A stretch of 25,925 bases of DNA from a virus. Lineage: Duplodnaviria; Heunggongvirae; Uroviricota; Caudoviricetes. The stretch lies in IMG/VR virus record IMGVR_UViG_2917403263_000005, one strand, 5' to 3'. Below, piece after piece: positions 1 through 22,286 of the stretch; position 1 is the stretch's first letter, and each line of letters starts with the position of its first letter. A program made the translations under genes and the position numbers. Below the pieces are notes generated by a model that was given only the letters and a program-made list of their open reading frames with translations, made no database searches and was not told the DNA's origin.

Positions 1-258
1 ATGCAAACCGTTATTTTTGGTCGTCCGGGTTGCTCTTACTGCGTGCGTGCTAAAGAGTTGGCAGACAAACTGAGTAATGAACGCGATGACTTTGAATATC
101 AGTATGTTGATATTCGTGCAGAAGGGATTAGCAAAGAAGATTTACAACAGAAAGCGGGTAAACCAGTAGAAACCGTACCGCAGATTTTTGTCGACCAGCA
201 ACACATCGGCGGCTATACCGATTTTGCTGCCTGGGTGAAAGAGAATCTTGAAGCCTGA
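1..258 (+). CDS. grxA: glutaredoxin 1
   Basis: Complete 85-aa ORF, ATG at 1, TGA at 256-258. Translation MQTVIFGRPGCSYC...HIGGYTDFAAWVKENLEA matches enterobacterial Grx1 along its length as I recall it. Active-site tetrad reads C-S-Y-C. Confidence 0.9.
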   Translation: MQTVIFGRPGCSYCVRAKELADKLSNERDDFEYQYVDIRAEGISKEDLQQKAGKPVETVPQIFVDQQHIGGYTDFAAWVKENLEA

Positions 259-267
259 TTGCCGGAT

Positions 268-302
268 AAGCCCTCTCTGTTTGAGGGCTTTATTGATTTT
301 TT
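268..302. terminator. hairpin plus T-run between convergent grxA and ybjM
   Basis: Perfect 8-bp inverted repeat AAGCCCTC (268-275) / GAGGGCTT (283-290) with 7-nt loop, followed by T-rich run tattgatttttt (291-302). Lies right after the grxA stop and overlaps the ybjM stop. Confidence 0.5.
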
Positions 303-667
303 CTGTGCTGTGACTTGAACAAACTACTAATAAACAAGAAACACAACGCTCCCAACGCACACCAGAAGACGGCGCTCAATAACCACGCCAGCTCTTGCCA
401 GAATGAGCGTGTTGGTGAAAAAAACAGACGCATAATTAACATAGAACACGGTGCCGCCAGCATTGCGCCAAACAGCGGTTTAAGGACTTCTCTACGCTGC
501 GAAAAAAAGCTGGCAACCGCCCCAGGAAGAATGAAAAACAGCAAGCCGATTTCAGGATGCCCGGCAGCCCGAAAAGCGCCTTTCATTTGCGTCGCCAGGA
601 ACAGGCACACTACAATGAAGAGGACAAAACAGCAGATTGCCCCCGCCCAACGTTGTTTATGTTTCAC
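290..667 (-). CDS. ybjM: inner membrane protein YbjM
   Basis: 125-aa ORF, GTG start at 667, hydrophobic throughout (MKHKQRWAGAICCFVLFIVVCLFLAT...). Matches the small membrane protein found between grxA and ybjL in E. coli-like genomes. Confidence 0.85.
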   Translation of the reverse strand: MKHKQRWAGAICCFVLFIVVCLFLATQMKGAFRAAGHPEIGLLFFILPGAVASFFSQRREVLKPLFGAMLAAPCSMLIMRLFFSPTRSFWQELAWLLSAVFWCALGALCFLFISSLFKSQHRKNQ

Positions 668-934
668 TCGCTCCTCCTGACACTGCCTCTATCGAACACA
701 TTTTCGCCACTATGGCGTTCAGTAAGATAAAGCCGCTTCGCATTCCATGCTAATATAGGCCAACGCAATTTTTATAGCCGTTGGTACTTAATGTGATTAC
801 ACTAGTAAAATATATTGTTTCTTTACTATTGCTTATGTGCGCTGAATGAATCCGCGCCCTGATTTCAGGTAAAAACATTATCTTAAATTACCATTTCTTT
901 CAACAGCTTACTCGTAAACAAGAAGTTAGTCTCC

Positions 935-2620
935 GTGAATATAAACGTCGCCGAATTGTTAAATGGGAATTACATTCTGTTATTATTTGTAGTCCTTGCG
1001 CTTGGACTATGTCTAGGAAAATTACGACTTGGTTCAATCCAACTGGGTAATTCCATTGGCGTTTTAGTCGTATCGTTACTATTAGGGCAACAACATTTCA
1101 GCATTAACACCGACGCGCTTAATCTTGGCTTTATGTTGTTTATTTTCTGCGTCGGGGTCGAAGCCGGACCCAACTTTTTTTCCATTTTTTTCCGCGATGG
1201 GAAAAATTACCTAATGTTAGCTCTGGTGATGGTTAGCAGTGCGCTGGCGATCGCCTTAGGGTTGGGTAAGCTGTTTGGCTGGGATATCGGTCTGACGGCC
1301 GGTATGTTGGCTGGCTCCATGACATCGACACCGGTTCTGGTCGGTGCTGGCGACACATTACGCCATTCCGGTATGGAAAGCGGACAGCTCTCCACAGCAC
1401 TGGATAATCTAAGCCTTGGGTATGCGTTAACTTATTTAATCGGCCTGGTGAGTTTAATTGTCGGTGCACGTTATTTACCGAAGTTGCAACATCAGGATTT
1501 ACAGACCAGCGCCCAACAAATCGCTCGCGAACGTGGCCTGGACACCGATGCCAGCCGAAAAGTTTATTTGCCGGTGATCCGCGCCTACCGTGTCGGCCCG
1601 GAGCTGGTGGCCTGGACCGACGGCAAAAATCTGCGTGAATTGGGTATTTATCGTCAAACTGGTTGCTACATTGAACGTATTCGTCGTAACGGGATTCTGG
1701 CAAATCCGGATGGCGACGCCGTGCTGCAAATGGGCGATGAGATAGCGTTAGTGGGATATCCAGACGCCCATGCCCGCCTCGATCCCAGCTTCCGTAACGG
1801 TAAAGAAGTTTTTGATCGTGACCTTCTCGACATGCGTATCGTCACTGAAGAGGTCGTCGTCAAAAACCATAACGCGGTAGGTAAACGTCTGGCACAACTG
1901 AAGTTGACCGATCACGGTTGCTTCCTTAACCGCGTCATCCGCAGCCAGATTGAGATGCCAATTGATGACAACGTTGTGCTTAATAAAGGTGATGTTTTAC
2001 AGGTGAGCGGCGATGCCCGTCGCGTGAAAACCATTGCTGACCGCATCGGCTTTATCTCGATTCACAGCCAGGTCACAGACCTGCTGGCATTCTGCGCGTT
2101 CTTTGTTATTGGCCTGATGATCGGGATGATCACCTTCCAGTTCAGTACATTTAGCTTCGGCATGGGTAACGCTGCTGGCTTGTTATTCGCCGGCATTATG
2201 TTGGGCTTTATGCGCGCTAACCACCCGACCTTCGGTTACATTCCGCAGGGGGCGTTAAGCATGGTGAAAGAGTTCGGCTTGATGGTGTTTATGGCAGGCG
2301 TTGGTTTAAGCGCCGGTAGCGGCATTAATAACGGCCTGGGCGCGATCGGTGGTCAGATGTTAATTGCCGGATTGATTGTCAGTCTGGTGCCGGTGGTTAT
2401 CTGCTTCCTGTTCGGCGCTTATGTACTGCGTATGAACCGCGCACTCCTGTTCGGCGCGATGATGGGCGCGCGTACTTGTGCTCCGGCAATGGAGATCATC
2501 AGCGACACCGCACGCAGTAACATCCCAGCTTTAGGTTATGCGGGTACTTATGCAATAGCTAACGTACTGCTAACGCTGGCCGGGACAATCATTGTCATGG
2601 TATGGCCAGGACTCGGATAA
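935..2620 (+). CDS. ybjL: putative AAE-family transporter YbjL
   Basis: 561-aa ORF, GTG start at 935. Two hydrophobic membrane halves separated by a soluble central region, the known YbjL architecture; N-terminus [20 protein letters not shown] as in E. coli YbjL. Confidence 0.9.
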
Positions 2621-2732
2621 AACTGAAGTTGCCCTGAAAATGAAATTTTTTTGTACAATCGGCGAACTTTTCTTTGGGGCATCAGTCTTAATTAGTGCCA
2701 CTGCTTTTCTTTGATGTCCCCATTTTGTGGAG

Positions 2733-2775
2733 CCCATCAACCCCGCCATTTCGGTTCAAGGTTGATGGGTTTTTT
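2733..2775 (+). terminator. rho-independent terminator-like hairpin downstream of ybjL
   Basis: Perfect 10-bp inverted repeat CCCATCAACC (2733-2742) / GGTTGATGGG (2760-2769) followed by T6 (2770-2775). The loop is long (17 nt), so confidence is moderate. Confidence 0.5.
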
Positions 2776-2855
2776 GTTGCCTGAAATTTATGCCGTTTAA
2801 AATCATGACGTTAGAAGCACTGTTTTTTAACGATGGCGACAAAATGGCGGCAGCG

Positions 2856-3074
2856 TCAAAGAGAGAGCGCCACCTGTCCTGATTTCATTGGATGCGGCTG
2901 AACCGGATTTGACTCTTTTGGCGTTGCAATCGAACGAACAAAAGTTTCATGGGTAACAAAAGTATGGCTGCAGTTAATGTTCTGGCACTGGTTGTAACGC
3001 TCTTTGGTCAATGAAGATACCTGAAAACTGCTGCGAGTATGGGCGGCACTTCCGCACAGTGGGCAAATCATCAT
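2856..3074 (-). CDS. ogr: Ogr/Delta-family zinc-finger late transcription activator
   Basis: Translation MMICPLCGSAAHTRSSF...KERYNQCQNINCSHTF shows the CxxC-x22-CxxxxC Ogr zinc finger and is close to P2 Ogr. The ORF track starts at a GTG at 3107; I place the start at ATG 3074 because GGGGAGAA sits 8-12 nt upstream. Confidence 0.85.
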   Translation of the reverse strand: MMICPLCGSAAHTRSSFQVSSLTKERYNQCQNINCSHTFVTHETFVRSIATPKESNPVQPHPMKSGQVALSL

Positions 3075-3164
3075 TTTTCGAGTTCTCCCCATTTTTGCTA
3101 AATTCACAATAATGATACCGCATCATTCCATTTTGCAAACTTAAAAGTTCTCCATTGCGAAGAA

Positions 3165-4268
3165 TCATTCCATTTCGAAATCATCAATCCTCACTTCAAG
3201 CTCCAGACTGGTCGTAAAACCGTTATCCGGGCTGACGGTATGCGTCAGAGTCGTAATGGTCCATTCCGCATCATCTATCGGCTGTTTAAAGCCACTGACC
3301 TTCACAGGCATTTCTGTGTAGAGATCTGCCCGCCCTTCCGCCAGTTGTAGCGAGAATAATGCAACGCCGCGTTGCAGGCGTTCCCACTGCATTTTCGCTG
3401 CCCGTTCGGCGTTGCTCCGGTTGGCATAAGTGCGATTAAGTACCAGCACGTTTTCATCCGTACCCACCAGGTAATCGCCCTGCTTCGCTTCTTCCGGCTC
3501 TTTCTTCTGCTTCTTAGTCCTGCGCTTACGCTTCACCGTGGTGCTTTCTTTCTTCGCGGGTTCGCGGGTATGCAACCAGCTGGCAATGACGCCCGTGTAA
3601 GCTCCGCGATCTGCCAGGGTAAAGCGGTGACTGTCGCCGTCCTTGCGTGTGATAGTGATCACCGGCAGTGGTTTACCAGTGGCGCTTTTGCCCTGCCCCT
3701 GCCGGATGAATAACAGATTGCCATTTTTCACCGACGCGATGGCACCGTACTGTCGCGCCAGCCGCATCAGAAAACTGCCGTCACTCTCATTAGTCTGGTC
3801 TATATGATCCACGGGTTTATCCGACAGGTCTTTACCCAGTGCCATCTTCAGTTTGTGACGCGCAGCTATTTCCTTCACCACTTCCCCGACCGTGGTCTTG
3901 TGCCACGATTTTTCACGGCGGGTATTCAGCGTTTCCCGAAAATCAGCACTTCGCGCCCGGATAGTCAGGCGGTCCGGGGCGCCAGTGTGTTCAATCTCGT
4001 CCACCGTGAATGCCCCTTTCGGGAAAAGCGGCTGCCCCTTCCAGCCCAGCGCCAGTGTAATGACCGCACCACGGCGCGGCAGCACGATTTTTCCGTCGGC
4101 GTCGTCCAGCTCCAGATCAAGCTGGTCCGCTTCAAAGCCCCTATTGTCCGTCAGCGTCAGACTCATCAGGCGATTATCCAGGACAGTAGTGATATCCCTG
4201 CCCTCAATACTGATGCTGAATGCGGGAGTTTTGTTACCCTTGTTAAGCAGTTCAGAGCTGAAATTCAC
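3165..4268 (-). CDS. D: tail protein D (late control gene D family)
   Basis: 367 aa. Segments AFSISIEGRDIT, LTLTDNRGFEADQLDLELDD, a basic KRKRRTKKQKK linker and C-terminal PVKVSGFK...WTITT match P2 gpD. GTG start overlaps the U stop (GTGA). Confidence 0.9.
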   Translation of the reverse strand: MNFSSELLNKGNKTPAFSISIEGRDITTVLDNRLMSLTLTDNRGFEADQLDLELDDADGKIVLPRRGAVITLALGWKGQPLFPKGAFTVDEIEHTGAPDRLTIRARSADFRETLNTRREKSWHKTTVGEVVKEIAARHKLKMALGKDLSDKPVDHIDQTNESDGSFLMRLARQYGAIASVKNGNLLFIRQGQGKSATGKPLPVITITRKDGDSHRFTLADRGAYTGVIASWLHTREPAKKESTTVKRKRRTKKQKKEPEEAKQGDYLVGTDENVLVLNRTYANRSNAERAAKMQWERLQRGVALFSLQLAEGRADLYTEMPVKVSGFKQPIDDAEWTITTLTHTVSPDNGFTTSLELEVRIDDFEME

Positions 4269-4750
4269 GACAGCAGCCCTCCCACCGTTTTACTGATATC
4301 GCTTAAAGCAGATGTTGCCGTTTCCTGCAGATTATTCAGTTGCGCACTGAGATCACCGAACATATCGGACAGGGATTCATCCACTCGTTTGAGCGACAGG
4401 GTGAACTCAATCCGGCGCGGCATACCGTCGCGGAAAAACTCCGTTTTAGTCTGATTCAGTCCCTCAATCACATACATGCCGTAAATCGTGCCGCTGCCTT
4501 CAATCAGGGGCCATGCTTTCCCCTGTTCTGCCATCTGCTCAAGTGCCAGCAACGACAGCCTGCCGCCTGTTATCTCCGGCATAAGAACACCGGAAAGCGT
4601 CAGCATGTCGTTGTCCGGTCCCAGAAACTGCGTGGACGGACGACGATTTACCCGGCTGTTAGCCGCATGTCGCCAGCTGCGTTGATACTGCAGTTCCTGA
4701 TACGGCACGGTGCGCAGCATAAACACGTACAATCCCAGCACCATCATCAT
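4265..4750 (-). CDS. U: tail protein U
   Basis: 161 aa beginning MMMVLGLYVFMLRTVPYQELQYQRSWRH, near-identical in its N-terminus to P2 gpU. ATGA overlap with the T stop. Confidence 0.9.
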   Translation of the reverse strand: MMMVLGLYVFMLRTVPYQELQYQRSWRHAANSRVNRRPSTQFLGPDNDMLTLSGVLMPEITGGRLSLLALEQMAEQGKAWPLIEGSGTIYGMYVIEGLNQTKTEFFRDGMPRRIEFTLSLKRVDESLSDMFGDLSAQLNNLQETATSALSDISKTVGGLLS

Positions 4751-7700
4751 GCGTCGTATCCCCCCTGATCGCTGTAGTTACTCCTGGCTTTTGCCTTCAG
4801 CCTGCGTTCACGTTCATCAAGCTGGCGGGCCACCTCCCGCGCAATATCCTGCGCACTTTGTCCTGGCTGCGTCTGAATGATGATCTGCGTCGGTGCCTCA
4901 ATCCGTTGAACGGGCGGCACAGTGGCTGCACGACTCACCATCGCTTCGCCGCCTTTCGCGGGAAGTGCCAAAGGATGCAACGGTGGAAGCTCTGCAGGCG
5001 CGGCAGCAACGCCCATCATTCCGGCAACAACGGCAGCCAGTGCAGCTGTATTTCTCCGGCTGGTCACGTTTGCCGGGCCGTTAACAATTTCCGGCCCGTT
5101 TTCACCGACGATGCCAAACTGCCCGCGCGGGATATAGCCGCCGCTGTCATACATCCCCGCAAAGCCATATCCCCATGACGGAAAACCACCCGATGGCATC
5201 ATCACTTTACCGTCTGCATTCACCGTCGCAGGTTGCTGACGCGTCACGCTTTCCGGCAGTTTCGCCTTTGCAGCCTCTTTACTGACAATGCCGAGTTTAT
5301 CCAGCAACCAGGAAACGCCAGATTTCAGGGAGTCCAGCGGATGCATAACCATATTCAGCCCTTCCGCCAGTGCCTCCCCGAATCGTCGCCCCATTGCCGC
5401 TGCGCTCTGCAGTTCGGCAGAGGTCGACTTAACGGGCGTCAGCAGATCAGTAAACCAGCCCCACAGCGCCTGTACTTTGTCGCCAATCCACTGAAACACA
5501 GGCTTAAGTGGTTCAAATGCAGCACTGATGGGACCTGCCGCCGCTTTGAATCCCTCCACCACGCCATCGAGAAATGCGGTGATGGGTTGCCAGTATTTCC
5601 AGACAACCAGCGCCACGCCTGCCAGTGCAGTAACCACAAGACCTATCGGACTGAGCAGAGCACCTAACAGACCAGATATGGCATACAGGGCAACGCGCAG
5701 CATCGCCAGTGGACCAGATGCCAGTACTCGCAACACCGTGCCTGCGGCGGTCAGTCCACCGCGCAGTACCGCCAGAGGATTCATAAACATCACAGCAACA
5801 GCACGTAAACCGGATAATCCAGACCGCAAAAGTGCAACCGGCGCACCTGCTACAGTTTTCAGGACATTTCCCGTCAGTGATGCCGTGCGGCGCAAAGACG
5901 ACAACGGCGCAGTAAGTAAACCCGCAGCATTGCCCGATGAAGCAAGCCCGCGTCGCAGCAGTGCCAGTGGTGCGCCAGCCAGCCAGGACAACGCGTTGCT
6001 GGTTCGAGTTACTGCTGCCGTAACGGAAGGTAACGTTTTGATACCCAGCACAGAGAATCCCAGACGGATCACTGCCAGCGGCCCCAGCACTGCAGCCAAC
6101 ACTACAGCCAGGGTGCCGAGGCCCACGGTAACAGCAGCCACAACCGCTGCTACTTTCATCAGTGTGCCCGTCAGTTCCGGGTTAGCTTCCACCCAGCGAC
6201 GCAGCGCCCCCGTGACGCTTTTTACCGTGTACAGAATATCCATCAGCGGCTGGCGCAGCGTTTCGCCCAGGCTGCTGAAGGTGTTCTGCGCTCCGGTTTT
6301 GACCAGCAACCACTGAGCAGAAAGTGAATCCTTGTTGATGTCGGATTCTTTCTGCATGGAACCGAGCGCATCATTGCCCGCTGTCAGTTTTAGCTGGCGC
6401 TGCAGTTCCGGCAGGTTGTTTGCCAGTTTCGCCGCGTCATCGCCAAACTCTTTACCAAACAACATGGTCATGGCAGACAGTCGCTTATCCTGCGGCAGTG
6501 CATTCACCTTCTCCAGCACACGCTGGATAGTTCCCATCGCATCCTTCGTCATCTGCTTTTCAATCACTTCAGGATTAAGTTTCAGCAGATTCATTCCTTC
6601 GAAGAAACTCTTACTTTGCATGGTGGCAATGGACAATTCACGCACCATCGCGTTTGCTGCACTGGCTGCAACCTCCGGCGCAGCGCCCAGTGTCAGGAAG
6701 GTGGAACCCAGCGCCGCCGCTTTACGATAATCCAGACGGTCAGCCACACCGCCCAGACGTTGCATAACATCGATGATGTCCGCCCCTTTCGACATGGCGT
6801 TATCATCCAGATAGTTCAGCGCATCGCCGAGCTGTTCAATATTGCGGGTAGGGATTTTGTAGAGCTGGGCGATTTTCCCCAGACTTTCTGACAGTTCATC
6901 CGCTGGCAGCTCAAAGGCTGTTGCCGCCTTTGCCGCCGTACTGGCGAAGGCCAGCAGGTCACGTTTCTGGTCTTCCCAGCTGTCGTCAGGGTTTGCGACG
7001 TTCATGCGCGCCCCACCTTCAACCAGTGCAGCGAAATCCACCGCACCGTTTTCCATCGGCAACTGTTCGCTGGCAGCCTTGATGGCATCCTGCATTTCGT
7101 AAAAACGCGCAGTGCGGTTGCCATTATCGTCACGCAGACCATTGACCTGCTTTGCCACACCTTTCATGGCATCTTCCATGCTGGTATAGCTTTTTACTGC
7201 CGCCATCACTGGTGCGCCCATTGCCAGCCCTGCCGCCGTGGTGGTGGCTCCGGCTCCTGCAATACGATCGCGCACCTCCAGCGAACGGGCATAACTGGCA
7301 CGCGCCGCATTCATCCTGCGCTGAGCTTCCCCCAGTCGCTTCAGCCGCGCCTCCTGTTTCGACAATTCCTGGTTATAACGTGATGTTTCACGGGCTAAAC
7401 GGGCAGTTGCTCCCGCATCATCTTTCGCAGAAATTCCCGCCCGGTACAGTTCTGCACGCACAAGCGCCGTTTGCTTCTGCAAATATTTTTGTTGTTCTTC
7501 CAGGCGTTGGACTGCCAGCGTTTGCCGACCTAAAGCCACAAGGTGCCGTTGTGATGGTTGTTCCATCGCCTCCAGCTCAGAGCTAAGCAAATTAGCCTTC
7601 TGTCTGGCATAGTTCAGCCTGTCGCCTAACTTCTTGTTATCGGCCTGCAGCTTGCGAAATTTTTCCAGGCTGTTACCCGCCTGATTGAGTTGCTTTAATG

Positions 7701-7824
7701 CGTCACGGGAGTTTCTGATTGCGCCAGCCAGCTCTTTCGAACTGGCCTGTGCAGCACGGAATGGGCGGGTGAGTTTGTCAACCGCATTAAGAATGACCTG
7801 CAGCCGCAGGTTGTTATCACTCAT
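4747..7824 (-). CDS. T: tail tape measure protein
   Basis: 1025-aa ORF between E/E' and U. Coiled-coil-rich N-terminus and Ala/Gly/Leu-rich hydrophobic central region typical of tape measure proteins; position equals P2 gpT. Confidence 0.9.
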   Translation of the reverse strand: MSDNNLRLQVILNAVDKLTRPFRAAQASSKELAGAIRNSRDALKQLNQAGNSLEKFRKLQADNKKLGDRLNYARQKANLLSSELEAMEQPSQRHLVALGRQTLAVQRLEEQQKYLQKQTALVRAELYRAGISAKDDAGATARLARETSRYNQELSKQEARLKRLGEAQRRMNAARASYARSLEVRDRIAGAGATTTAAGLAMGAPVMAAVKSYTSMEDAMKGVAKQVNGLRDDNGNRTARFYEMQDAIKAASEQLPMENGAVDFAALVEGGARMNVANPDDSWEDQKRDLLAFASTAAKAATAFELPADELSESLGKIAQLYKIPTRNIEQLGDALNYLDDNAMSKGADIIDVMQRLGGVADRLDYRKAAALGSTFLTLGAAPEVAASAANAMVRELSIATMQSKSFFEGMNLLKLNPEVIEKQMTKDAMGTIQRVLEKVNALPQDKRLSAMTMLFGKEFGDDAAKLANNLPELQRQLKLTAGNDALGSMQKESDINKDSLSAQWLLVKTGAQNTFSSLGETLRQPLMDILYTVKSVTGALRRWVEANPELTGTLMKVAAVVAAVTVGLGTLAVVLAAVLGPLAVIRLGFSVLGIKTLPSVTAAVTRTSNALSWLAGAPLALLRRGLASSGNAAGLLTAPLSSLRRTASLTGNVLKTVAGAPVALLRSGLSGLRAVAVMFMNPLAVLRGGLTAAGTVLRVLASGPLAMLRVALYAISGLLGALLSPIGLVVTALAGVALVVWKYWQPITAFLDGVVEGFKAAAGPISAAFEPLKPVFQWIGDKVQALWGWFTDLLTPVKSTSAELQSAAAMGRRFGEALAEGLNMVMHPLDSLKSGVSWLLDKLGIVSKEAAKAKLPESVTRQQPATVNADGKVMMPSGGFPSWGYGFAGMYDSGGYIPRGQFGIVGENGPEIVNGPANVTSRRNTAALAAVVAGMMGVAAAPAELPPLHPLALPAKGGEAMVSRAATVPPVQRIEAPTQIIIQTQPGQSAQDIAREVARQLDERERRLKAKARSNYSDQGGYDA

Positions 7825-8253
7825 CGTTGGCCCCGCTTCTCTGAATCGCTTTATACCGCCATTCCAGCACTTCGGTCAGCGGCATAACGTCAGTAACGGA
7901 TGGCGGCCAGTGAAAGATGGTGGCGATATCTGCCACCAGATCGTCAACCGTCAGGCTGTCGGTAAACCGGCAAGCACCGACTTCTTCAACAAAAAAGTGA
8001 CAACCTCAACCGACATGGCAGTGAGATCTGCCGGGTCCATCTCTGCAATTTCCTGTGCAGTCAGTGCCGGACTGGAAATGCGGGGGATCACGGTCATCAT
8101 CGCGTTCACATCCATATCCATAATGGCCTGCAGGCGTGTACCGCGCAGCGCACCGGACTGCGGTTTACGCAGCACAATTTCGGTAATTTCTGTTTTACCG
8201 CGCATGATGGGGGTGTCCAGTTGAATGGTCTTTTCAGTCTGCTTATCGCTCAT
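7817..8253 (-). CDS. E+E': tail assembly chaperone E+E' (-1 frameshift product)
   Basis: After TTTTTTG the -1 frame stays open for 56 codons (VEEVGACRFTDSLTVDDLVADIATIFHWPPSVTDVMPLTEVLEWRYKAIQRSGANDE) and ends at TGA 7819-7817, overlapping the T start. This is the conserved P2 E/E' (lambda G/GT-like) arrangement. Confidence 0.65.
7951..8253 (-). CDS. E: tail assembly chaperone E
   Basis: 100-aa ORF immediately upstream of T, ATG at 8253. Contains the slippery heptamer TTTTTTG near its 3' end (minus strand, 7996-7990). Confidence 0.8.
   Translation of the reverse strand: MSDKQTEKTIQLDTPIMRGKTEITEIVLRKPQSGALRGTRLQAIMDMDVNAMMTVIPRISSPALTAQEIAEMDPADLTAMSVEVVTFLLKKSVLAGLPTA
7990..7996 (-). promoter_or_regulatory. 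programmed -1 ribosomal frameshift slippery site (T TTT TTG)
   Basis: Heptamer read directly on the minus strand inside E, in frame as ACT TTT TTG; the downstream -1 frame is open to the T start. Confidence 0.6.
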
Positions 8254-8307
8254 TTTGCTGTCCTGTAAATTGGGTTCTGGCGCGGTATCCCGCGCCGTTC
8301 AGATAGA

Positions 8308-8823
8308 TCAGAGGCCGAGGGCGTTGCGGTGCGCTTCCATCAGGTCCACACCGTCCACAATTTCCACCATGTTGATAAGGTCCACTTCATAGAGCACCTC
8401 ACCATTGATGGTCAGCTTCGCGTAGCTGTTGGTACTGGTCACTTTGGTGGTGTTGCTTTCGCCCGTCTTCCACTCGCCGGAATCCACTTCTTTGTGACGC
8501 CCACGCACCACAAGCTCCACGGCCTGCACTTCCCCGGTATCATCACGCTGAATAGAGCCGGTAAAGCGCAGCTGGATGCCATCCACCGTGGCTTTGCCCA
8601 TCTGCTTAAACAGCAGCAGTTCAGTACCACCAATGGAAAATTCTGTATCCAGTGCACTGTCATCCAGTCCCAGATCCACATCCACCGCCCCCGGCATACC
8701 GCCGCCGCGATACTTCTCATATTTGCGGGTGAATTTCGGCAGCGTCAGCGACTCAACGATCCCCTGCCAGTTGTTCCCGTCGTTAAACAGGTTCAGGTGT
8801 TTTAATTTGCGTGGTAAAGCCAT
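8308..8823 (-). CDS. FII: tail tube protein FII
   Basis: 171 aa, MALPRKLKHLNLFNDG...; size, sequence and position (between FI and E) match the P2 major tail tube protein. Confidence 0.9.
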   Translation of the reverse strand: MALPRKLKHLNLFNDGNNWQGIVESLTLPKFTRKYEKYRGGGMPGAVDVDLGLDDSALDTEFSIGGTELLLFKQMGKATVDGIQLRFTGSIQRDDTGEVQAVELVVRGRHKEVDSGEWKTGESNTTKVTSTNSYAKLTINGEVLYEVDLINMVEIVDGVDLMEAHRNALGL

Positions 8824-8832
8824 GTTGTCCCC

Positions 8833-10005
8833 TTACGCGCTGACCTGGCTGGCGAAATTCACCAGGTACTGATCGGTGATGCGCTGACGCAGCATCAGGT
8901 TTTCAAGTGGCGGCACTGGCGTGTAGTCGTAGTCGATGGTGAGCTTCCCGGCTTTCAGAGTGTCTTTATCGTTCACCGACTCGTCCAGCCAGCAATCACC
9001 ACCAATGAGATAGCCCTGACTGACCAGGCTGCGCATTTTGGCGCGGATACCTTCGATAATGTCGCGGGCCAGCGACGGGTTCAGCGGTTTGTCCACCGCC
9101 CACATATGCGCTTCTGCCATCGTGTCCATCAGTACCTGCGCCGTGCGGGTGTAGTTTTCGAAGGCAAAGAGCGGGTCATCACTCAGGCTGCGGGAACCCC
9201 AGAAGCGGAAACCGTCTTTGCGGATAAGCGTGGTGACGTCGTTCTGGTTCAGCAGACCTGCATCTGTTGCCGGGTCCTGCAGATCCCAGAACACATCAGC
9301 AGAAATTCCGGTGACACCGTTCACGCCCACGTTGGACAGGCTTTTGTGCCATCCGGTCTGCTCGTCAATTTTGGCGCGCAGGCCAAGCGCACGTGCGGTG
9401 GCGTATGCCGTTGCTTCGGCATTCAGCACCGTGTCCCAGCTGATAAAATCCGGCCAGATCAGCATCCCTTCACGCTGGCTGAAGTTTTCGCGGTAGGTAA
9501 GCACTTCTTCCACTGTTTTGCAGCCATACGCCGACAGGTAAGCAAACCCGCGCAGGCTTTGCGCCACACTCAGCAGCTCAGTCGCAACGGCTTTGTTATC
9601 GTGACCTGGCACGCCGAGAATGCGCGGTTTAACGCCGAGCTGTGACTGGGCAGATAACAGGGCTTTCATGCCTGTTTTTTTACCCTCGGCGGTCACTGCG
9701 CCGATGATATTGGTTGTGGTTTCTTCTTCCGTTTCACCCTGCGGCACACGCACAACAACGGTCACGGGTTTTGCCTGATCAGCGATGGCATCCAGCGAAC
9801 GGGCCAGCGTGCCGGACTCACCCGCTTTACCGCTGGCGGTCAGTACATCAGTTATCAGCACGGGTTTATTAAGAGGAAACATTTTTGCATCGGCATCATC
9901 GCCCGTGCAGACCATACCCACGATGGCGGTGCTCACCGTGGTAATGGATCGGGTGCCTTCGTTGACTTCAACAACGCGCACTCCGTGGTGGTAATCCTGA
10001 GCCAT
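8833..10005 (-). CDS. FI: tail sheath protein FI
   Basis: 390 aa, [19 protein letters not shown]...; strong AGGAGG Shine-Dalgarno 8 nt upstream of ATG 10005; matches P2 contractile sheath protein. Confidence 0.9.
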
Positions 10006-10199
10006 AGTGGCGAACCTCCTGATTGGATTAGGCTTCGCCCTATGTTGAAGTGATTGTGCCTGACAAACAGCTAAGCGCAGTTGTACCGTTATTCATACAA
10101 AATGAGGGGAAGGCTTCAGAAGCTCACTCCACACTGGCGCTTATAGAGCTGTGTCTGATCATATGTTGATACAAGTACATAACGAATAAGCATGGTTAA

Positions 10200-10222
10200 G
10201 CTCCCAGACCAGAACTGGGAGC
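10200..10222 (-). terminator. hairpin downstream of the acyltransferase cargo gene
   Basis: 8-bp inverted repeat GCTCCCAG / CTGGGAGC with 7-nt loop, 15 nt after the acyltransferase stop. No clean U-tract follows, so weak. Confidence 0.3.
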
Positions 10223-10236
10223 ATGCCATTCACTTG

Positions 10237-11421
10237 TTATTTCTGTATTCTCACTGCCATTCTTTTTTGCACATCAAAAAATTTATTAATCACTCCATTG
10301 CGATTAATAAATGGATATTCTATACCTTTAAAAGTCATATAAGCGATAGTCACAACAATTGGCGACAACATCAGAATTAAATATGCGTATGAATTATCAC
10401 TCAAATTTCGCACATACGCCTTCCCGAGTAAAACATCTAAAGTAAAATATAGAACAATCCCGTGCATTAGATAGATACTATATGATATCTCACCAAAGAC
10501 TCTGGAGATTTTCAACTTTAACACACCAAATAGATCACATCCATTTACGATCAAAATAAATATAGCGCCGATCAATAAAATTGGCAGGTAATCAAACGAG
10601 TGAGGGAAGTAAAACAACGAAAAAACGAAACCTGAAACACACAAAAACGATGTCAATTTCAAAGATGCAACTTTTAAGATTAATTTATTACCTCGTACTG
10701 CTGAAGCTAAAAAGCCACAGGCGAATGGCAGCAAAAAGATGTAATTTAAGTTGAGGTAATTAAACGCATATAAGCTAAATGCAGGGATAACTAGCACAAA
10801 GATATTTTTGGTTCTTCTCAAAGCAAATGCAATGAGCGGTAGAGAAAAATAGAATAACCACTCATACACAAGCGTCCAATAAATACCAGCATATATATAA
10901 CCAGTATCACTAAATCCATTTATATGTGAATTACCATAAGTTGCATATATCATCCATGAAAGAATGGATTCAATTAGTTCACCTGCACTTACATTGAGTT
11001 TCCAGCCTGTTTTATATCCTATGATAAATAATGCAATTAAAAGCGAGAACATATACAGAGGATATATTCTAAAAATTCTTGATTTGTACAACGAGAACCA
11101 ATTTATTTTTTTTGAATCAATTATTTTAGAAAAAAACAAATACCCCGTTATCATAAAGAAAATCATAACGGGTAATTGCCCTGCATTCGCAAATACATGA
11201 CTTGAAGGTAAAGACCATTCATTTGTTTTTATAAAGTGATGCCATATATAAGAGTGATGCAGAAACACTAAGAAGGCCAAATACCCTCTTAATCCATCAA
11301 TATTAACGTTCCTACCTTTACCTTCAATTGGTAGCGGGCTTATTTTATCAAGAAAATACAATATGGCGATAGCTGCAAATATAGCAGCTACTATTAACAT
11401 AGGGCTATTATAAATTAACAT
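10237..11421 (-). CDS. acyltransferase-3 family integral membrane protein (putative O-antigen/LPS O-acyltransferase)
   Basis: 394-aa ORF, ATG at 11421 with AAGG 9 nt upstream. Polytopic hydrophobic protein with the N-terminal AT3 signature NIDGLRGYLAFLVFLHH (DGLRG...H). Two sampled 60-nt lines gave about 32% and 40% G+C, against about 52% in a sampled line of the flanking sheath gene. Confidence 0.8.
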   Translation of the reverse strand: MLIYNSPMLIVAAIFAAIAILYFLDKISPLPIEGKGRNVNIDGLRGYLAFLVFLHHSYIWHHFIKTNEWSLPSSHVFANAGQLPVMIFFMITGYLFFSKIIDSKKINWFSLYKSRIFRIYPLYMFSLLIALFIIGYKTGWKLNVSAGELIESILSWMIYATYGNSHINGFSDTGYIYAGIYWTLVYEWLFYFSLPLIAFALRRTKNIFVLVIPAFSLYAFNYLNLNYIFLLPFACGFLASAVRGNKLILKVASLKLTSFLCVSGFVFSLFYFPHSFDYLPILLIGAIFILIVNGCDLFGVLKLKISRVFGEISYSIYLMHGIVLYFTLDVLLGKAYVRNLSDNSYAYLILMLSPIVVTIAYMTFKGIEYPFINRNGVINKFFDVQKRMAVRIQK

Positions 11422-11640
11422 GTAATTAACCTTAGGATTTTTCAGAAATTTTCACAGCAATATTTTTATATTGTACGCTCACAAATATATCTTTCACAAT
11501 ATAAATGGTCATTACCATCATCAAAAACTGTCCCAGGATTACAGTTCTCCTGAACTCAACCAGGGCGAGAGTATCTCTATCATGTTGATTTGCAACGTGC
11601 CAGTAGCCTGTTTTATCGTGTTTCCAAAATGAGCTGGTTA

Positions 11641-11678
11641 AAAACTGGCAGGCATGAAAATCTACCTGCCAGTTTTTT
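11641..11678. terminator. bidirectional terminator-like hairpin after tail-fibre assembly gene
   Basis: AAAA-CTGGCAGG (11645-11652), 12-nt loop, CCTGCCAG (11665-11672), TTTTTT (11673-11678). Immediately 3' of the tail-fibre assembly stop (11677-11679). Confidence 0.45.
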
Positions 11679-12066
11679 ACAATGCAGGTTTATCAGGCCA
11701 TTCAATGTCCGGAGCAGTAGATGTATCGACAGCTTTCACGTCTTTGACATACTGCATCCACATAATCAACTTTGCTTTATTTTCATCACTAATGGTTCCC
11801 AGAAATAAATCAGTCCGCCAGTCTGCTGTTACGGCATTAGCATCTGCAAGCCGTGATTGTCTTTCCTGTTCAGCATTGTTAACCAGCTCTTCATATGTTT
11901 TTACGGGGGCTGGCGGAGCAATAAATTCACCATCAGCGAAAAGCCAGCCAATGCGCACTCCATCAGCAAGTGGGAACACTTGAAAACCATCCGTAGCCCA
12001 TTCACTCTCCCCATCCCATACCGCAATGTTGACAACAACACCATCTCTCACCATTGCATAATTCAT
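11677..12066 (-). CDS. G: tail fibre assembly chaperone (Tfa / gpG-like)
   Basis: C-terminal block LGTISDENKAKLIMWMQYVKDVKAVDTSTAPDIEWPDKP matches the conserved Tfa C-terminus. Start placed at ATG 12066 (GGAG 9 nt upstream, TAATG overlap with the upstream stop) rather than the ORF-track start at 12081. Confidence 0.8.
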   Translation of the reverse strand: MNYAMVRDGVVVNIAVWDGESEWATDGFQVFPLADGVRIGWLFADGEFIAPPAPVKTYEELVNNAEQERQSRLADANAVTADWRTDLFLGTISDENKAKLIMWMQYVKDVKAVDTSTAPDIEWPDKPAL

Positions 12067-12386
12067 TATGCGTACTCCCATACAATTACAATGCCTGCCA
12101 TCCCTGCACCTCCAGCACGTTGCTGTGTCGCGCCGCCGTAAACACAGGCACCGCCACCACCGCCACCTGGTCCATTAGCATTAATTCCTTCTCCGGCAAT
12201 GGCCTGTGAACCCGCGCCCTCACCCAGAACAGAACTGCCACCAGGTCCTCCCATTGCCAGCAATCCTGAATAGCGAACACCTGGCATGGTATAGCCACTG
12301 CCACTGCCAAAAATATTCGCCCCCGTGAATCCAGGTGTGTATGCACCAGCAGGCCCTACAACGGCTACATTATTACCCTCTGTCAT
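12066..12386 (-). CDS. glycine-rich tail-fibre C-terminal segment, out of frame with H (likely 3' part of a split tail-fibre gene)
   Basis: 106-aa ORF whose ATG overlaps the H stop (TAATG). Composition (GPGGGGGGACVYGG...) continues the Gly-rich character of the last 80 residues of H. The -1 frame is open across the G10 tract, so one extra G or two fewer would fuse it to H. Confidence 0.6.
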   Translation of the reverse strand: MTEGNNVAVVGPAGAYTPGFTGANIFGSGSGYTMPGVRYSGLLAMGGPGGSSVLGEGAGSQAIAGEGINANGPGGGGGGACVYGGATQQRAGGAGMAGIVIVWEYA

Positions 12387-13771
12387 TACAGCTCCACCCC
12401 CCCCCCTTTTGCGGTAACAACGTCACCAAATGCTGAACTTCCCCCTGTCGCCCCCGGCATTGCACTGGCTCCCGTTCCTCCGTACCCAACGGTAACCGTT
12501 GTTACTACCGGATGGTCTATGCGGGCTTTAACGTATTCTCCCGACATTCCCCCTCCGCCGCAGGCAGCATTGCCCCCTGTACCGACCTGGCATCCGCCGC
12601 CAGCGCCACCACCGCCAACCACTTCAACAATCGCAAACTTTATACCTGCAGTTGGCGTATATGTCCCGGAGGCTTTGAACACCTGACATTTCACCAGTCG
12701 GCCTGTTCCGTCGCCAAGCCCAAGGTATGTGAGAAGACCAGCTACATCCTTTCCACTCAAATTAGTCAGCGTATTATCCAGCGGTTGTTTTCCCGCCAGT
12801 GCATTAAGCATTGTCGTGGCAAAGTTCGGGTCATTCCCCAGCGCCGCCGCCAGTTCGTTCAGCGTATCCAGTGCCGCAGGTGCAGAACCCACTATTGCTG
12901 CAATCGCCGATTTCACAAAAGCCGTGGTGGCAATCTGTGTATTGTTGACCGACTGTGCCGCAGTCGGTGCTGTTGGCGTTCCGGTGAATGCCGGACTCGA
13001 CAGCGGCGCTTTCAGTGCTAACGCATTGTTAATGGTGGTGCTGAATTTCGGATCATTGTTAATGGCTGCGGCTATTTCTTTCAGCGTGTCCAGCGTGGCT
13101 GGCGCACCATTAATAAGAGCCGTCAGTGCCGCCTGAACAAACGCAGTGGTCGCAACCTGCGTGGTATTATTCCCCGCCGCTGGCGTTGGCGCTTTGGGTG
13201 TTCCGGTAAACGTCGGACTTTCTTTGGGTGCATACTGTGAATGCGGGTCCAGTGCGGCAAGATGTTTTGCCATCTGATCATCCGCGTACACCTTCAGCTC
13301 CAGTACCTTATCATCCACATACTTGCGAGTCGCCAGTACTACAGCAGGGTCGATTGTCAGGGTGATATTGTCCGTACTACTGGTAATCAGCACCATACGC
13401 ACGGTCTGGGTACGCCCGCTGCCTTCAGCCAGTTGCGGCTTATAGCTTTCCGGGCAGTTGCCCACGGCAATCAATGCCCCGGATTCATCAAACAGGCCCA
13501 CTTCACGTATCCACCAACCGCCCTCGTTTTCAGGGATCACCTGTTCAGCAATAATCTGGCTGCTGTTCTGCGGGTCGATATAGAGCATATTCAGCGCAGC
13601 CCGGCGTTTCTCATTTACCAGTGCAGTCTGCTTTGCGTCCGGCGTTGGCAATGTCCCGCCGCCATCGCCGACCGCCATATGGGTAATTTTTAAAGGCACA
13701 CCGAGCGCGGCGGCGCTGGCAAGTTTCGCCGCGCCAATATCCGTCAGCAGGGTATAAAATTTTGTGCTCAT
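12386..13771 (-). CDS. H: tail fibre protein H (N-terminal baseplate-binding part plus repeats; apparently truncated at a G10 tract)
   Basis: 461 aa. N-terminus MSTKFYTLLTDIGAAKLASAAALG is P2 gpH-like. Two tandem ~70-aa repeats (SPTFTGTPKAPT...NALALKA and SPAFTGTPTAPT...NALAGKQ) followed by a Gly-rich C-terminus. ATGA overlap with the I stop. Confidence 0.85.
   Translation of the reverse strand: MSTKFYTLLTDIGAAKLASAAALGVPLKITHMAVGDGGGTLPTPDAKQTALVNEKRRAALNMLYIDPQNSSQIIAEQVIPENEGGWWIREVGLFDESGALIAVGNCPESYKPQLAEGSGRTQTVRMVLITSSTDNITLTIDPAVVLATRKYVDDKVLELKVYADDQMAKHLAALDPHSQYAPKESPTFTGTPKAPTPAAGNNTTQVATTAFVQAALTALINGAPATLDTLKEIAAAINNDPKFSTTINNALALKAPLSSPAFTGTPTAPTAAQSVNNTQIATTAFVKSAIAAIVGSAPAALDTLNELAAALGNDPNFATTMLNALAGKQPLDNTLTNLSGKDVAGLLTYLGLGDGTGRLVKCQVFKASGTYTPTAGIKFAIVEVVGGGGAGGGCQVGTGGNAACGGGGMSGEYVKARIDHPVVTTVTVGYGGTGASAMPGATGGSSAFGDVVTAKGGGVEL
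12397..12406 (-). repeat. homopolymeric G10 tract (C10 on plus strand) at the 3' end of tail-fibre gene H
   Basis: Counted directly: plus strand ccaCCCCCCCCCCtttt. On the coding strand it reads GCA AAA GGG GGG GGG GTG GAG CTG TAA. Confidence 0.9.
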
Positions 13772-14373
13772 GGATTCACTCTCATTGTGTCAATAACATG
13801 GATCGCCCCGCCTTCATGCGCGGTGCCGCCAGAAATAATTGTTTCGTTGATATACGGATAGATCGTGATTTCTTCGCCAAGATAGCTGGCGGCCCCCACC
13901 CAATGCGGACCGCTGGTCTGCAGATTGATGGACATGCCGATCATGTGACGGCTACATGGTTTGGCATCGCTTATCAGTCGCTCAAGTTCCAGATAGGTAT
14001 CTTCAGTGATGCCCTGATCCTGCACGCCGATATCCAGGCGAAACGTGCCTGGTGTTTCTCCGGTCTGCCACCACTCAATAATGCGGATCAGAAAGCCGAA
14101 CGGCTCCACCACCCGCCGCACGGCACTGGTGGTTCCTTTGTGCTGATGAATATAAAAAGCATCCTTCACCACCTGGCGTTTGACGCTTTCTGTCCAGCTC
14201 TCGTCCCAGCGATCCACAGAGAACGCCCAGGCGAGATAAGGCAGGAAACTGACCGGACAGGTAGCCGGATCCCACAAGTCACGTAGCGGCACCTGCAAAT
14301 CAGAAATCCCGCTGCAGGTTTGTGCCAGTCGGCGCTCCAGTGGTGTTGAACCCGGTGGCAGCAGACTATTCAT
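13768..14373 (-). CDS. I: baseplate protein I
   Basis: 201 aa; motifs LPYLAWAFSVDRWDE and PGTFRLDIGV match P2 gpI. Confidence 0.85.
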   Translation of the reverse strand: MNSLLPPGSTPLERRLAQTCSGISDLQVPLRDLWDPATCPVSFLPYLAWAFSVDRWDESWTESVKRQVVKDAFYIHQHKGTTSAVRRVVEPFGFLIRIIEWWQTGETPGTFRLDIGVQDQGITEDTYLELERLISDAKPCSRHMIGMSINLQTSGPHWVGAASYLGEEITIYPYINETIISGGTAHEGGAIHVIDTMRVNP

Positions 14374-15274
14374 CCGTTCCTCCGTTGGTTACGCTCCACT
14401 GCGTACATGATGCCGCCTGCGTTTTGTTCAGAACCACATCCGCCAGCGGAGAAGCCAGTTCCACACGCTGCACACCCTCAACATGCAGCGCGGCAAAAAT
14501 GGCACTACGGCGAATATCCCGACCGAGCCGCGTCTGACTGGCAATGTACCTCTGCAGACTGGCTTTTGCCGCTGCCATTACCGGCTCTGCTTCCGGTCCC
14601 GGATAGAGAAAAATGGTGGCATCCACCCGGTACGGGATGATTTCTGCGCTGCGAACCGTCAGACGGTCAGCCACCGGGCGGACGTTCTCACTGTTCAGGG
14701 CTTTTTCCACCACGTCCAGCAGGTCTTTTTCTGCTGTTCCGTCGCCTTCGCGGCTAAGGACAGTCAGCACCACCTCTGCAGGTGCCGGACTGGTTGCACT
14801 GGCATCCGCCACCCGACCGTCGGCGCTTCGTGCATGAAATTCATAAGCGGCAGTTGGCCCCGCAACTGAAAGTCCTTCAAAGGCTGCAGGCACACGCAGG
14901 CGTAACGCTTCATCGCTTTCCATCACAGCCGCAACGGGCGGTACAGCGTCATCATCAGCAGGCGTCACCGTCAGGCGTTTCACGTTGTAGTTGGCAGCGA
15001 GCTGGTCCAGATCGCCGCCCATCGCATAAGCCACCATCACCGCCTGCGCGGCTTCGTTAATGCGCTGGCGCAGAAGCAGCTCACGATAAGCGTTCTCCTG
15101 CAACAATTTGGTGACGGGTTCAGATTCCAGTTCCAGCGTGCGGATCACTGCTTCCTGCTCATCTTTCGGATGAAGCGCCACAAATTCTGCCTTGCGTTCG
15201 GCAAGCAGCGTCTCAAAGTCCGACACATCCACAATCTGCGGCGCAGGCAACTGCGAAAGGTCAATCACTGCCAT
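14366..15274 (-). CDS. J: baseplate assembly protein J
   Basis: Matches P2 gpJ (MAVIDLSQLPAPQ...LHVEGVQRVELASPLADVVLN). Start placed at ATG 15274 (AGGAG 8 nt upstream) rather than the ORF-track start at 15313. Confidence 0.85.
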   Translation of the reverse strand: MAVIDLSQLPAPQIVDVSDFETLLAERKAEFVALHPKDEQEAVIRTLELESEPVTKLLQENAYRELLLRQRINEAAQAVMVAYAMGGDLDQLAANYNVKRLTVTPADDDAVPPVAAVMESDEALRLRVPAAFEGLSVAGPTAAYEFHARSADGRVADASATSPAPAEVVLTVLSREGDGTAEKDLLDVVEKALNSENVRPVADRLTVRSAEIIPYRVDATIFLYPGPEAEPVMAAAKASLQRYIASQTRLGRDIRRSAIFAALHVEGVQRVELASPLADVVLNKTQAASCTQWSVTNGGTDE

Positions 15275-15620
15275 TCTCTGCTCCTGTTGATACGGAAAGG
15301 GAAACAGGCACACCGTTATTACGCCGCCCGGTCAGCTCCACCACCATTGAACCGTCAAAATCGCTGTTGATGGTGATGGAATCCAGCGTCAGCCGTGGCT
15401 CCCAGCGACTCAGCGCCACATACACTGCCGACATGACCTGCAGGCGTAACGCCGAATTTTGTGGCTGATCTATCAGTGCCGACAGCAGGGAACCATATTC
15501 CCGGCGGGCAATGCGGCTACCCTGCGGCGTCAGCAGAATGTCCCGCACTGACTGGCGCAGATGGTCAATATCAGTAATGGTCTTGCCCGTTGCGCTGTTC
15601 ATGCCGTAATACATCGTCAT
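15261..15620 (-). CDS. W: baseplate wedge protein W (gp25-like)
   Basis: 119 aa; MTMYYGMNSATGKTITDIDHLRQSVRDILLTPQGSRIARREYGS matches P2 gpW; ATGA overlap with the V stop. Confidence 0.85.
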   Translation of the reverse strand: MTMYYGMNSATGKTITDIDHLRQSVRDILLTPQGSRIARREYGSLLSALIDQPQNSALRLQVMSAVYVALSRWEPRLTLDSITINSDFDGSMVVELTGRRNNGVPVSLSVSTGAENGSD

Positions 15621-16195
15621 ACCGGGCCTCCCGATGTGTCGCCGCCAGACTTCACTTTATTGTGCGCGTGGTCATCCACCACGATCTCGTTGGAACTCAT
15701 CGGGCCGCCGCCCTGAGTCACACCACCGTTGATCACCACCTCACTGTTAATACGGGTGGTGTCGGCTTCCACGATAAACTCCCCGGTTTTGAAGGTGACG
15801 TTATCCACCGCCTCGATCACCATGGATTTAATACCCCGAACGTACCAGCGCCCGATTTCGGGGTCGTACTCAAACCAGCCGCCGTCCGGGTATTCCGTCA
15901 CGTTGCCGTCCTCAGACCTGGACGGCGGCGGAAACTGGTTTGAATAGACGGCAGGCAGGGCAAAGGCGGTTTCCAGATTGCCGCCCAGGCTGAACAGCAC
16001 AACCTGCTCCCCCACAGACGGTTTCCACCAGGTGCGCGAGTTGCCCGCGCGCAGCGTCAGCCAGTTAATCCAGTTGGTTTCAAGCTCACCCGTTTTCACC
16101 CGGCACAGCCAGTTGTCCCGGTCCACTGCCGTTACAGTTCCGGTGCGGATTAGGTTGGTGATAAGGCGCATGATTTCTGTGAGTTGTGCGTTCAT
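15617..16195 (-). CDS. V: baseplate spike/assembly protein V
   Basis: 192 aa; MNAQLTEIMRLITNLIRTGTVTAVD...RSEDGNVTEYPDGG is P2 gpV-like; ATG at 16195. Confidence 0.85.
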   Translation of the reverse strand: MNAQLTEIMRLITNLIRTGTVTAVDRDNWLCRVKTGELETNWINWLTLRAGNSRTWWKPSVGEQVVLFSLGGNLETAFALPAVYSNQFPPPSRSEDGNVTEYPDGGWFEYDPEIGRWYVRGIKSMVIEAVDNVTFKTGEFIVEADTTRINSEVVINGGVTQGGGPMSSNEIVVDDHAHNKVKSGGDTSGGPV

Positions 16196-16251
16196 AGCTA
16201 TAGATTGCCATGAATGATGTATCTAAGAACAAGGTGAGCTTAGTCTGGTCC

Positions 16252-16279
16252 ATGACACAATTAAGAATTACTATATAAA
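16252..16279 (+). promoter_or_regulatory. candidate sigma70 promoter for the V-S cargo gene
   Basis: ATGACA (16252-16257), 16-bp spacer, TATAAA (16274-16279), about 30 nt upstream of ATG 16310. Hexamers read by eye in an AT-rich region, so this is weak. Confidence 0.3.
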
Positions 16280-16309
16280 AATTGTTAACTACTTGGTTGA
16301 GAAACAAAC

Positions 16310-17137: not shown

Positions 17138-17297
17138 CAACGATGATGAACTAATACTAAAAAACTACACTATTACTGATAACAAGCCTTGTAAATGTGG
17201 TGGGGAATTTAAATCAGAAAAAGGTAATTTCACCATTAAAAATGGTCGACTGAGAGAAATAGAGTACAACGAGCCAGCTCGAATTTACAAAGAGTAA
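17136..17297 (+). other. out-of-frame coding continuation of the cargo gene (+1 frame, no start codon) carrying the second half of a zinc ribbon
   Basis: Open frame ...DNDDELILKNYTITDNKPCKCGGEFKSEKGNFTIKNGRLREIEYNEPARIYKE ending at TAA 17295-17297, 15 nt before the S stop. It has no ATG/GTG/TTG start of its own. Its CKC pairs with the upstream CTQC to give CxxC-x33-CxC. Confidence 0.55.
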
Positions 17298-17311
17298 ATA
17301 TAACGAAGGAA

Positions 17312-19080: not shown

Positions 19081-19081
19081 T

Positions 19082-19790: not shown

Positions 19791-19793
19791 AAT

Positions 19794-20461: not shown

Positions 20462-20556
20462 GCTGCTTTCTCCTGAAATAAAGGGCGGTGGACGGGGTTT
20501 TGATGTGGCAGTGCCTTTCGCCACCCCGTGCCGCCCGTGCGCGGGGGCACGTTCTG

Positions 20557-21208: not shown

Positions 21209-21211
21209 GGG

Positions 21212-22270: not shown

Positions 22271-22286
22271 CAGGTTTTGTGCTCCA

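Follow-up and report, generated by a model that had tools for sequence, protein, structure and literature searches.

The 3' end of a tRNA or tmRNA gene is a site at which phages and islands integrate (Williams 2002, cited in both PMC10121019 and PMC3603311). Genes for small RNAs (sRNAs) are phage targets in general (Bobay et al. 2013, PMC3603311), and ryeE is cited in that paper as a target already known. The P2-type prophages Rybb*W, Rybb*B and Rybb*Cr, which belong to E. coli W, B and Crooks, respectively, have been recorded as inserted at 'rybB ncRNA' (Archer et al. 2011, PMC3032704). The rybB prophage of E. coli B carries the retron Ec86 (PMC3032704), and cyaR is the site of P2 elements that include the ogr-D' remnant of K-12 (PMC3032704, Table 2). 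An island Kpn38RybB has been reported in K. pneumoniae (Hudson et al. 2014, PMC4048246), and Hochhauser et al. (2023, PMC10121019) described hotspot #29 of E. coli, which in 109 genomes holds Felsduovirus prophages and no others, with rybB as the gene they integrate into. RybB itself is a sigma-E-dependent sRNA that represses porins (PMC3632133).

In the annotated record of phage P2, ogr is followed by an Int arm site with two copies of TGTGGAC, an IHF site, a 27-bp core and Cox sites, and the end of int contains a further pair of arm repeats. The loci used by P2 are named locI, locII, locIII and locH, and one P2 site lies beside the sRNA gene cyaR (ryeE).

We analysed a stretch of 25,925 nucleotides of phage DNA, called the window below, in which the gap between the host gene ybjL and the phage gene ogr occupies positions 2621 to 2855. 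Our conclusion, to which we give a probability of roughly 93%, is that this gap consists of the host gene rybB overlapping the ogr-side att junction of a P2-like (Peduoviridae) prophage, with rybB kept intact. The locus agrees with the rybB hotspot of P2-like prophages in the target gene, in the position at its 3' end, in the core sequence and in the order ybjL-rybB-core-ogr ... int-core-rcdA. It differs from it in the host, which is here a cryptic-clade Escherichia, and in an attB/attP identity that covers the full 27 bp. As in P2, the att site adjoins ogr, int is on the other side, the core has 27 bp, the ogr-side junction is attR, each arm has two tandem repeats, here putatively of the arm type, at similar distances from the core, and an sRNA gene is the target. 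Integration into tRNA and tmRNA genes is similar: there, too, the element has a copy of the 3'-terminal part of a structured RNA gene, the crossover falls inside this part, and one junction ends up with a restored gene. The target here, however, is an Hfq-dependent regulatory sRNA, and only the last ~11 nt of the gene, half the terminator stem plus the U-tract, are duplicated. The integration site and mechanism are already known, and nothing in this work changes the current understanding of them. The coordinates of the features are collected in Table 1.

Table 1. Features of the host-phage junction and its surroundings, in window coordinates.
Feature	Position	Strand	Basis or remark
ybjL, aspartate:alanine antiporter family	935-2620	+	561-aa ORF; host gene left of the junction
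Putative sigma-E promoter of rybB	2664-2690	+	-35 GAACTT 2664-2669, 16-nt spacer, -10 TCTTA 2686-2690, +1 2697
rybB small RNA gene, complete	2697-2775	+	Rfam RF00110, seed identity, fold
Rho-independent terminator of RybB, hairpin plus T6	2733-2775	+	Inverted repeat, Rfam match, fold
Probable strand-exchange segment ATGGGTTTTTTGTT	2765-2778		3' half of RybB terminator stem plus U-tract; from E. coli HS cores
att core, ogr-side junction (attR)	2765-2791		27-bp block ATGGGTTTTTTGTTGCCTGAAATTTAT common to attB, attP, attL and attR
ogr-side arm of the phage att site (P arm in the P2 record)	2792-2855		64 bp; 96-97% identical to KP12/4LV2017 arms
Tandem repeat TGGCGACAAAATGGCGGCAG, candidate integrase arm-binding sites	2834-2853	+	Motif in both arms
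ogr, late-gene activator, first prophage gene	2856-3074	-	72 aa in contig L007; Pfam Ogr_Delta, E 5e-22
gpD-like tail gene	3165-4268	-	Pfam Phage_GPD in contig L007; P2-type late genes continue to window end

The rybB gene between ybjL and ogr

A sequence-only reading of the window had described the gap as an intergenic prophage-host junction bounded by the end of ybjL at 2620 and the end of ogr at 2856. Both boundaries were borne out by the ORF calls (935-2620 on the plus strand, and a mechanical ORF at 2856-3107 on the minus strand). What had been overlooked is that the gap contains a complete sRNA gene. Scanning the whole window against Rfam gave RybB (RF00110) as the sole match, on the plus strand from 2700 to 2778. 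It scored 105.3 bits, the gathering score being 40, with an E-value of 5.1e-21, and was full length (model positions 1-79 of 79). The three bases upstream of this match complete the 5' end of RybB and put the true start at 2697. The seed that serves in target recognition, GCCACTGCTTTTCTTT at 2697-2712, is the same as in E. coli K-12 and identical to GCCACUGCUUUUCUUU, the 16-nt RybB seed oligonucleotide RybB-16 (PMC4911921). Over its whole length the RybB of the window is identical to that of K-12 and of prophage-free conspecific strains, apart from one such strain that differs at a single loop base.

Upstream of the gene, GAACTT-N16-TCTTA fits the sigma-E consensus, which we take to be GGAACTT-N16-TCAAA. 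The putative -10 element ends 7 nt before +1, and the whole promoter region is identical at the conspecific empty sites and conserved in E. coli K-12. This suggests that rybB would be transcribed from a sigma-E promoter in this host as well.

The perfect 10-bp inverted repeat followed by T6 that had been noted within the gap is indeed present. Its arms, CCCATCAACC at 2733-2742 and GGTTGATGGG at 2760-2769, are 100% complementary and separated by 17 nt, and the T6 run is at 2770-2775. When the RNA from 2697 to 2778 was folded, the terminator stem comprised 12 pairs (2731-2742 with 2760-2771) with the U-tract at 2770-2775, and the energy was -25.2 kcal/mol compared with -16.8 +/- 2.5 for shuffled sequences (z -3.3; 0 of 200 shuffles folded as well). 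A simple terminator scan of 2400-3300 found no terminator, because it permits only loops of 3-8 nt and the loop of this hairpin has 17 nt. The hairpin had been proposed as either the ybjL terminator or part of the integration target. The second proposal stands, the core including the last five bases of the stem and the T-run; the first is too simple, the hairpin being first of all the terminator of RybB. It lies 113 nt past the ybjL stop and may serve as an additional stop for ybjL read-through, which probably ends at the RybB hairpin too because there is no other hairpin with a T-run between 2620 and 2731.

That lack of a competitor is also what would favour taking the hairpin as the ybjL terminator only, and the gap as a non-coding spacer with an att site and no sRNA gene. 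A second role in ybjL termination is compatible with the presence of rybB, but the absence of an sRNA gene is not: the 79-82 nt that end in the hairpin score 105 bits against the full-length RybB covariance model, the published seed is present, and a sigma-E-like promoter is found 7 nt upstream of +1. We consider a gap without an sRNA gene highly improbable, and the label of the gap should be rybB plus attR rather than spacer.

In some assemblies of the same species, a gene for a 59-aa protein has been called at the positions corresponding to 2570-2749 on the minus strand (for example 11636-11815 in contig L005). This ORF, for which no Pfam match was obtained, is antisense to the greater part of rybB and to the ybjL stop. 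It is almost certainly a spurious call over an unannotated sRNA gene.

Host flanks, breakpoints and the att core

Contigs of the same species were found by an exact-protein look-up with the YbjL of the window. One of them (L007; GCA_005781135.1, VATQ01000003.1) is 100% identical to the window across 12,620 bases, two further contigs have related prophages at the same place, and five are prophage-free, with a host side 99.2-99.7% identical to the window and the gene order ybjL-rybB-rcdA. The identity of ybjL is consistent with Pfam Asp-Al_Ex/TrkA_C matches for YbjL in the identical contigs and with the E. coli annotation of ybjL at ~90% DNA identity. Prophage genes to the left of ybjL would have been at odds with a junction in the gap; in the identical contig there are only host genes, the 9 kb left of the window being ordinary host sequence that includes pot, rimK and nfsA. 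At the empty sites rybB is followed by rcdA (ybjK), a TetR-family gene, and ybjL and rcdA are also the neighbours of rybB in E. coli K-12. In the window the prophage parts rybB from rcdA.

In its flanks the window shares 90-91% identity with E. coli, 95% with E. whittamii and 97% with Escherichia sp. E1V33, and no conspecific-level match was found among species-representative genomes. Judged by these identities the host is a cryptic-clade Escherichia, neither E. coli proper nor Klebsiella, and the window is at most a new host record for a known element.

A comparison with an uninterrupted region downstream of ybjL, which the earlier reading had proposed, gave the host-side breakpoint. Up to the end of ...GGTTGATGGGTTTTTTGTTGCCTGAAATTTAT, at 2791, the window is identical to all five empty conspecific sites; beyond that point they are unrelated to it and lack the sequence at 2792-2855. 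The phage-side breakpoint came from the record of the Klebsiella phage KP12, which joins int and ogr across attP in the order int, arm, ATGGGTTTTTTGTTGTCTGAAATTTAT, arm, ogr, and which matches the window at 96% from ATGGG (2765) rightwards. We defined the 27-bp core as the overlap of the empty-site homology and the KP12 attP homology, and this places it inside the gap, where it had been expected. The core begins with the last 5 nt of the RybB terminator stem, continues through the U-tract and extends 16 nt beyond. It occurs once in the window, with no second copy there, and the attR annotated in the Klebsiella phage 4LV2017 (NC_047818) maps to 2765-2783. The left prophage boundary in the window can in this way be fixed to the base, at 2765-2791.

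The 4LV2017 record also covers the rybB sequence, its match starting at window position 2677, as would be expected if rybB were phage-borne and the real host-phage junction lay farther left, within 2621-2696. That record, however, was cut from a lysogen and has its attR annotated inside. In the circularly joined attP of KP12, the sequence to the left of ATGGG is int-side arm sequence and not rybB, and prophage-free conspecific strains carry an identical rybB. We therefore rejected a phage-borne rybB on the ground that attP is without the 5' part of the gene, and we give next to no credence to a junction farther left.

Identity between attB and attP extends over the full 27 bp in the host of the window; in K. 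pneumoniae it spans 19-20 bp, and in E. coli K-12 and HS it is limited to 14 contiguous bp. The same core, over 26 nt, is found at empty rybB sites in Enterobacter, Citrobacter, Atlantibacter and E. whittamii. We also observed that GTTGCCTGAAATTTA, which is the part of the core past the RybB U-tract (window 2776-2791), is identical at the empty sites of Enterobacter, Citrobacter, Atlantibacter and cryptic Escherichia (loci L018-L037). The sequence equivalent to that farther downstream of 2791 is unrelated between these genera, and E. coli proper differs at 3-4 positions of 2776-2791.

The int-side junction and the occupancy of the site

The window ends inside the portal gene, ~10 kb short of the int end of its prophage. 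A look-up with the large terminase, the last complete gene, together with 10-kb flanks gave 8823 blocks and returned only other genomes. The direct repeat that had been predicted for the int-proximal end was found in the relatives Escherichia sp. E1V33, E. coli HS and 4LV2017, the window itself stopping short of that end.

The E1V33 junctions were found by an exact-pattern scan of species-representative genomes for the core. Both are present in this strain, whose rcdA side shares 97% identity with the species of the window and whose prophage, over 5.2 kb, shares 96% with that of the window. Around the junction, the E1V33 attR does not differ from the window, and its attL reads ...AACCCGTTTACATAA (int-side arm), ATGGGTTTTTTGTTGCCTGAAATTTAT (core), CTCCTGCCCCGCCAC... 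(rcdA-side flank as at the empty sites). In the complete genome of E. coli HS a distance of 31,464 bp separates the two copies of the core, and the order is rcdA, core, int ... ogr, core, rybB, ybjL; in 4LV2017 the attL and attR are annotated with the same sequence. A tyrosine integrase of 343 aa lies beside attL in E1V33, HS, 4LV2017 and KP12, all of them relatives of the prophage in the window. The four-way alignment of attB, attP, attL and attR was as expected for E1V33, E. coli HS and K-12. From these relatives, the int end of the prophage in the window would be expected to read int, ...CCCGTTTACATAA, ATGGGTTTTTTGTTGCCTGAAATTTAT, CTCCTGCCCCGCCAC..., rcdA.

The right side of the core differs between host and phage in E. 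coli (ATGGGTTTTTTGTTATCTAAAAYTTAT in the host versus ...GTTGCCTGAAATTTA in the phage), and this gives information on the position of the crossover. E. coli HS retains the host version ATCTAAAATTTA at attL, on the int side, and has the phage version GCCTGAAATTTA at attR, on the ogr side. The two cores differ only to the right of ATGGGTTTTTTGTT, and therefore the crossover took place within the left 14 bp. The same segment would have been used in the host of the window, where the core is identical over 27 bp and the deduction is carried over from one E. coli genome; the cleavage positions themselves would lie within this segment. Because the segment consists of the U-tract and the 3' side of the terminator stem, the RybB transcript is rebuilt base for base.

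The sequence-only reading had regarded integration between ybjL and its neighbour as unusual. This view does not hold: rybB is a well-known site, four papers naming either this gene or small-RNA genes at large as targets of P2-like prophages (PMC3032704, PMC4048246, PMC10121019, PMC3603311), and it is occupied in ~20% of complete E. coli genomes. The ogr-side junction ybjL-rybB-ogr-gpD was found in 1115 of 5426 such genomes and the int-side junction int-arm-core-rcdA in 1114. The other E. coli genomes (~4300) align only up to 2791, or only from the first core base.

These counts also bear on whether the junction, although genuine, belongs to a prophage that is now fixed or defective, its int end lost or rearranged, so that the att site is no longer functional. 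The int end in question lies outside the window, and another prophage at the same rybB site (L015, CP099186.1) has a large internal deletion. Against this, the P2-type late genes from ogr to the large terminase are all intact ORFs over the 23 kb that are visible, the counts of the two junctions in E. coli are nearly equal, and empty and occupied states both occur among conspecific strains, which points to recent mobility. We consider a prophage that has lost its att function unlikely. The prophage with the deletion aligns to window positions 1-7118 and 21307-25925 and is without ~7118-21307, that is, most of the tail, baseplate and lysis genes; it is presumably a deleted, defective derivative.

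The phage arm, the prophage genes and the proposed integration

The reading had also stated that this is not one of the classical P2 loci, and here our results agree. The 27-bp core of P2, AAAAAATAAGCCCGTGTAAGGGAGATT, which we verified in NC_001895, had 0 matches in the window with up to 3 mismatches. Since the integrase gene of the prophage lies outside the window, the E1V33 integrase was used as its proxy; it is ~36% identical to integrases of Peduovirus (P2-type) and ~55% to 186-like ones. Only the 15 phage records of its own group, which come from E. coli and Klebsiella, gave identities of 95-99%, and those to the integrases of vB_EcoM-813R9 and Kp4880-1 are 98-99%. A classical P2 locus was rejected on these two grounds, the missing core and the distant integrase. 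The arm and ogr region, in turn, is 96-97% identical to that of the Klebsiella phages KP12 and 4LV2017.

Just before the ogr stop, two 9-bp repeats at a spacing of 11 bp make up TGGCGACAAAATGGCGGCAG, a motif found nowhere else in the window (0 occurrences expected by chance). When one position is left free, the 20-mer is found a single time in either arm of the KP12 attP, in the same orientation (positions 2387 and 2570 of L003), and the motif is found at both attL and attR of E. coli HS, 4LV2017 and E1V33. Its presence in both arms, and the layout of the P2 attP, suggest that these repeats are integrase arm-binding sites, to which the integrase would bind. The arm repeats are TGGCGRCA here whereas they are TGTGGAC in P2, and the cores are unrelated. 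In P2, ogr has its own terminator between the gene and the arm site, whereas here ogr ends 2 nt from the arm motif. An IHF-like match is found at 2801-2813, where P2 has its IHF site, but the consensus is not above chance in the window (24 found versus 18.7 expected).

In attP, the ATGGGTT of the core forms the 3' half of a small phage hairpin, AACCCGTTT-ACAT-AAATGGGTT followed by T6, downstream of int. Its fold is weak (-9 kcal/mol, z -2.0, equalled by 7 of 200 shuffles), and that it acts as a terminator in attP is a guess. As the ATGGGTT and T6 of the core are the 3' half of this hairpin, both recombinant junctions end in a hairpin plus T-run.

After ogr, the genes in the identical contig are those for GPD, GpU, tape measure, GpE, tube and sheath. 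Several other genes were observed near the att site or among the late genes in the window and its relatives. In E. coli 2c3 (L039, NZ_CM176618.1, 4556-5171) there is a gene for a hypothetical protein of 120 aa between the ogr-side arm and ogr, and therefore some members of the group have cargo at this place. A conserved 89-aa ORF lies between int and the repeats of the int-side arm in the prophages of E1V33 (L036, 4605-4874) and E. coli HS (L017, 4947-5216), and one possibility is that it encodes an excision or directionality factor.

Two islands of low GC content were seen within the window. The first (10201-11600) has a GC content of 0.32-0.34, compared with ~0.55 in the rest of the prophage, and contains a 394-aa acyltransferase (Pfam Acyl_transf_3; ORF 10237-11421, minus strand) between the tail-fibre assembly and sheath genes, at the position of the Z/fun cargo locus of P2. 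Conspecific prophages at the same rybB site have different acyltransferases in the opposite orientation, and the gene is probably surface-modification cargo. The second island (16201-17400; 0.377) contains, between the genes for baseplate V and tail S, a 275-aa ORF (16310-17137) on the plus strand, the adjacent genes being on the other strand. Its matches are to Pfam DUF6602, a PD-(D/E)xK model of PADLOC (4.5e-32) and NucC-like nuclease models (~5e-14), and it is a candidate for anti-phage defence cargo. Another P2-like prophage has a Peptidase_U49 gene at the same spot.

For the integration itself, we propose that the tyrosine integrase of the phage recombines the 27-bp attP core ATGGGTTTTTTGTTGCCTGAAATTTAT with the identical sequence at the 3' end of rybB. 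The exchange would occur inside the first 14 bp of the core, for which the phage carries the same sequence, and the promoter, seed, terminator stem and U-tract of rybB are therefore left intact. The lysogen would in this manner keep a working RybB.

Perhaps the tie between phage and rybB goes beyond neutral docking, in one of two ways that can be imagined from the sequence arrangement. The sigma-E-driven rybB promoter is directed towards ogr, whose 3' end is separated from it only by the shared terminator and 80 bp, and envelope stress could cause antisense read-through into the late-gene activator; if true, this would couple prophage development to membrane stress. Alternatively, repeated integration and excision, rather than a host function, might keep the 16 nt beyond the U-tract uniform, the phage homogenising the host site. 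Taken jointly, we regard these two proposals as very unlikely.

The junction is a clean example of a known principle, in which a temperate phage docks at the 3' end of a conserved structured RNA gene and brings a replacement part with it. The host retains its envelope-stress sRNA, and the phage gains a site that is conserved across several enterobacterial genera.
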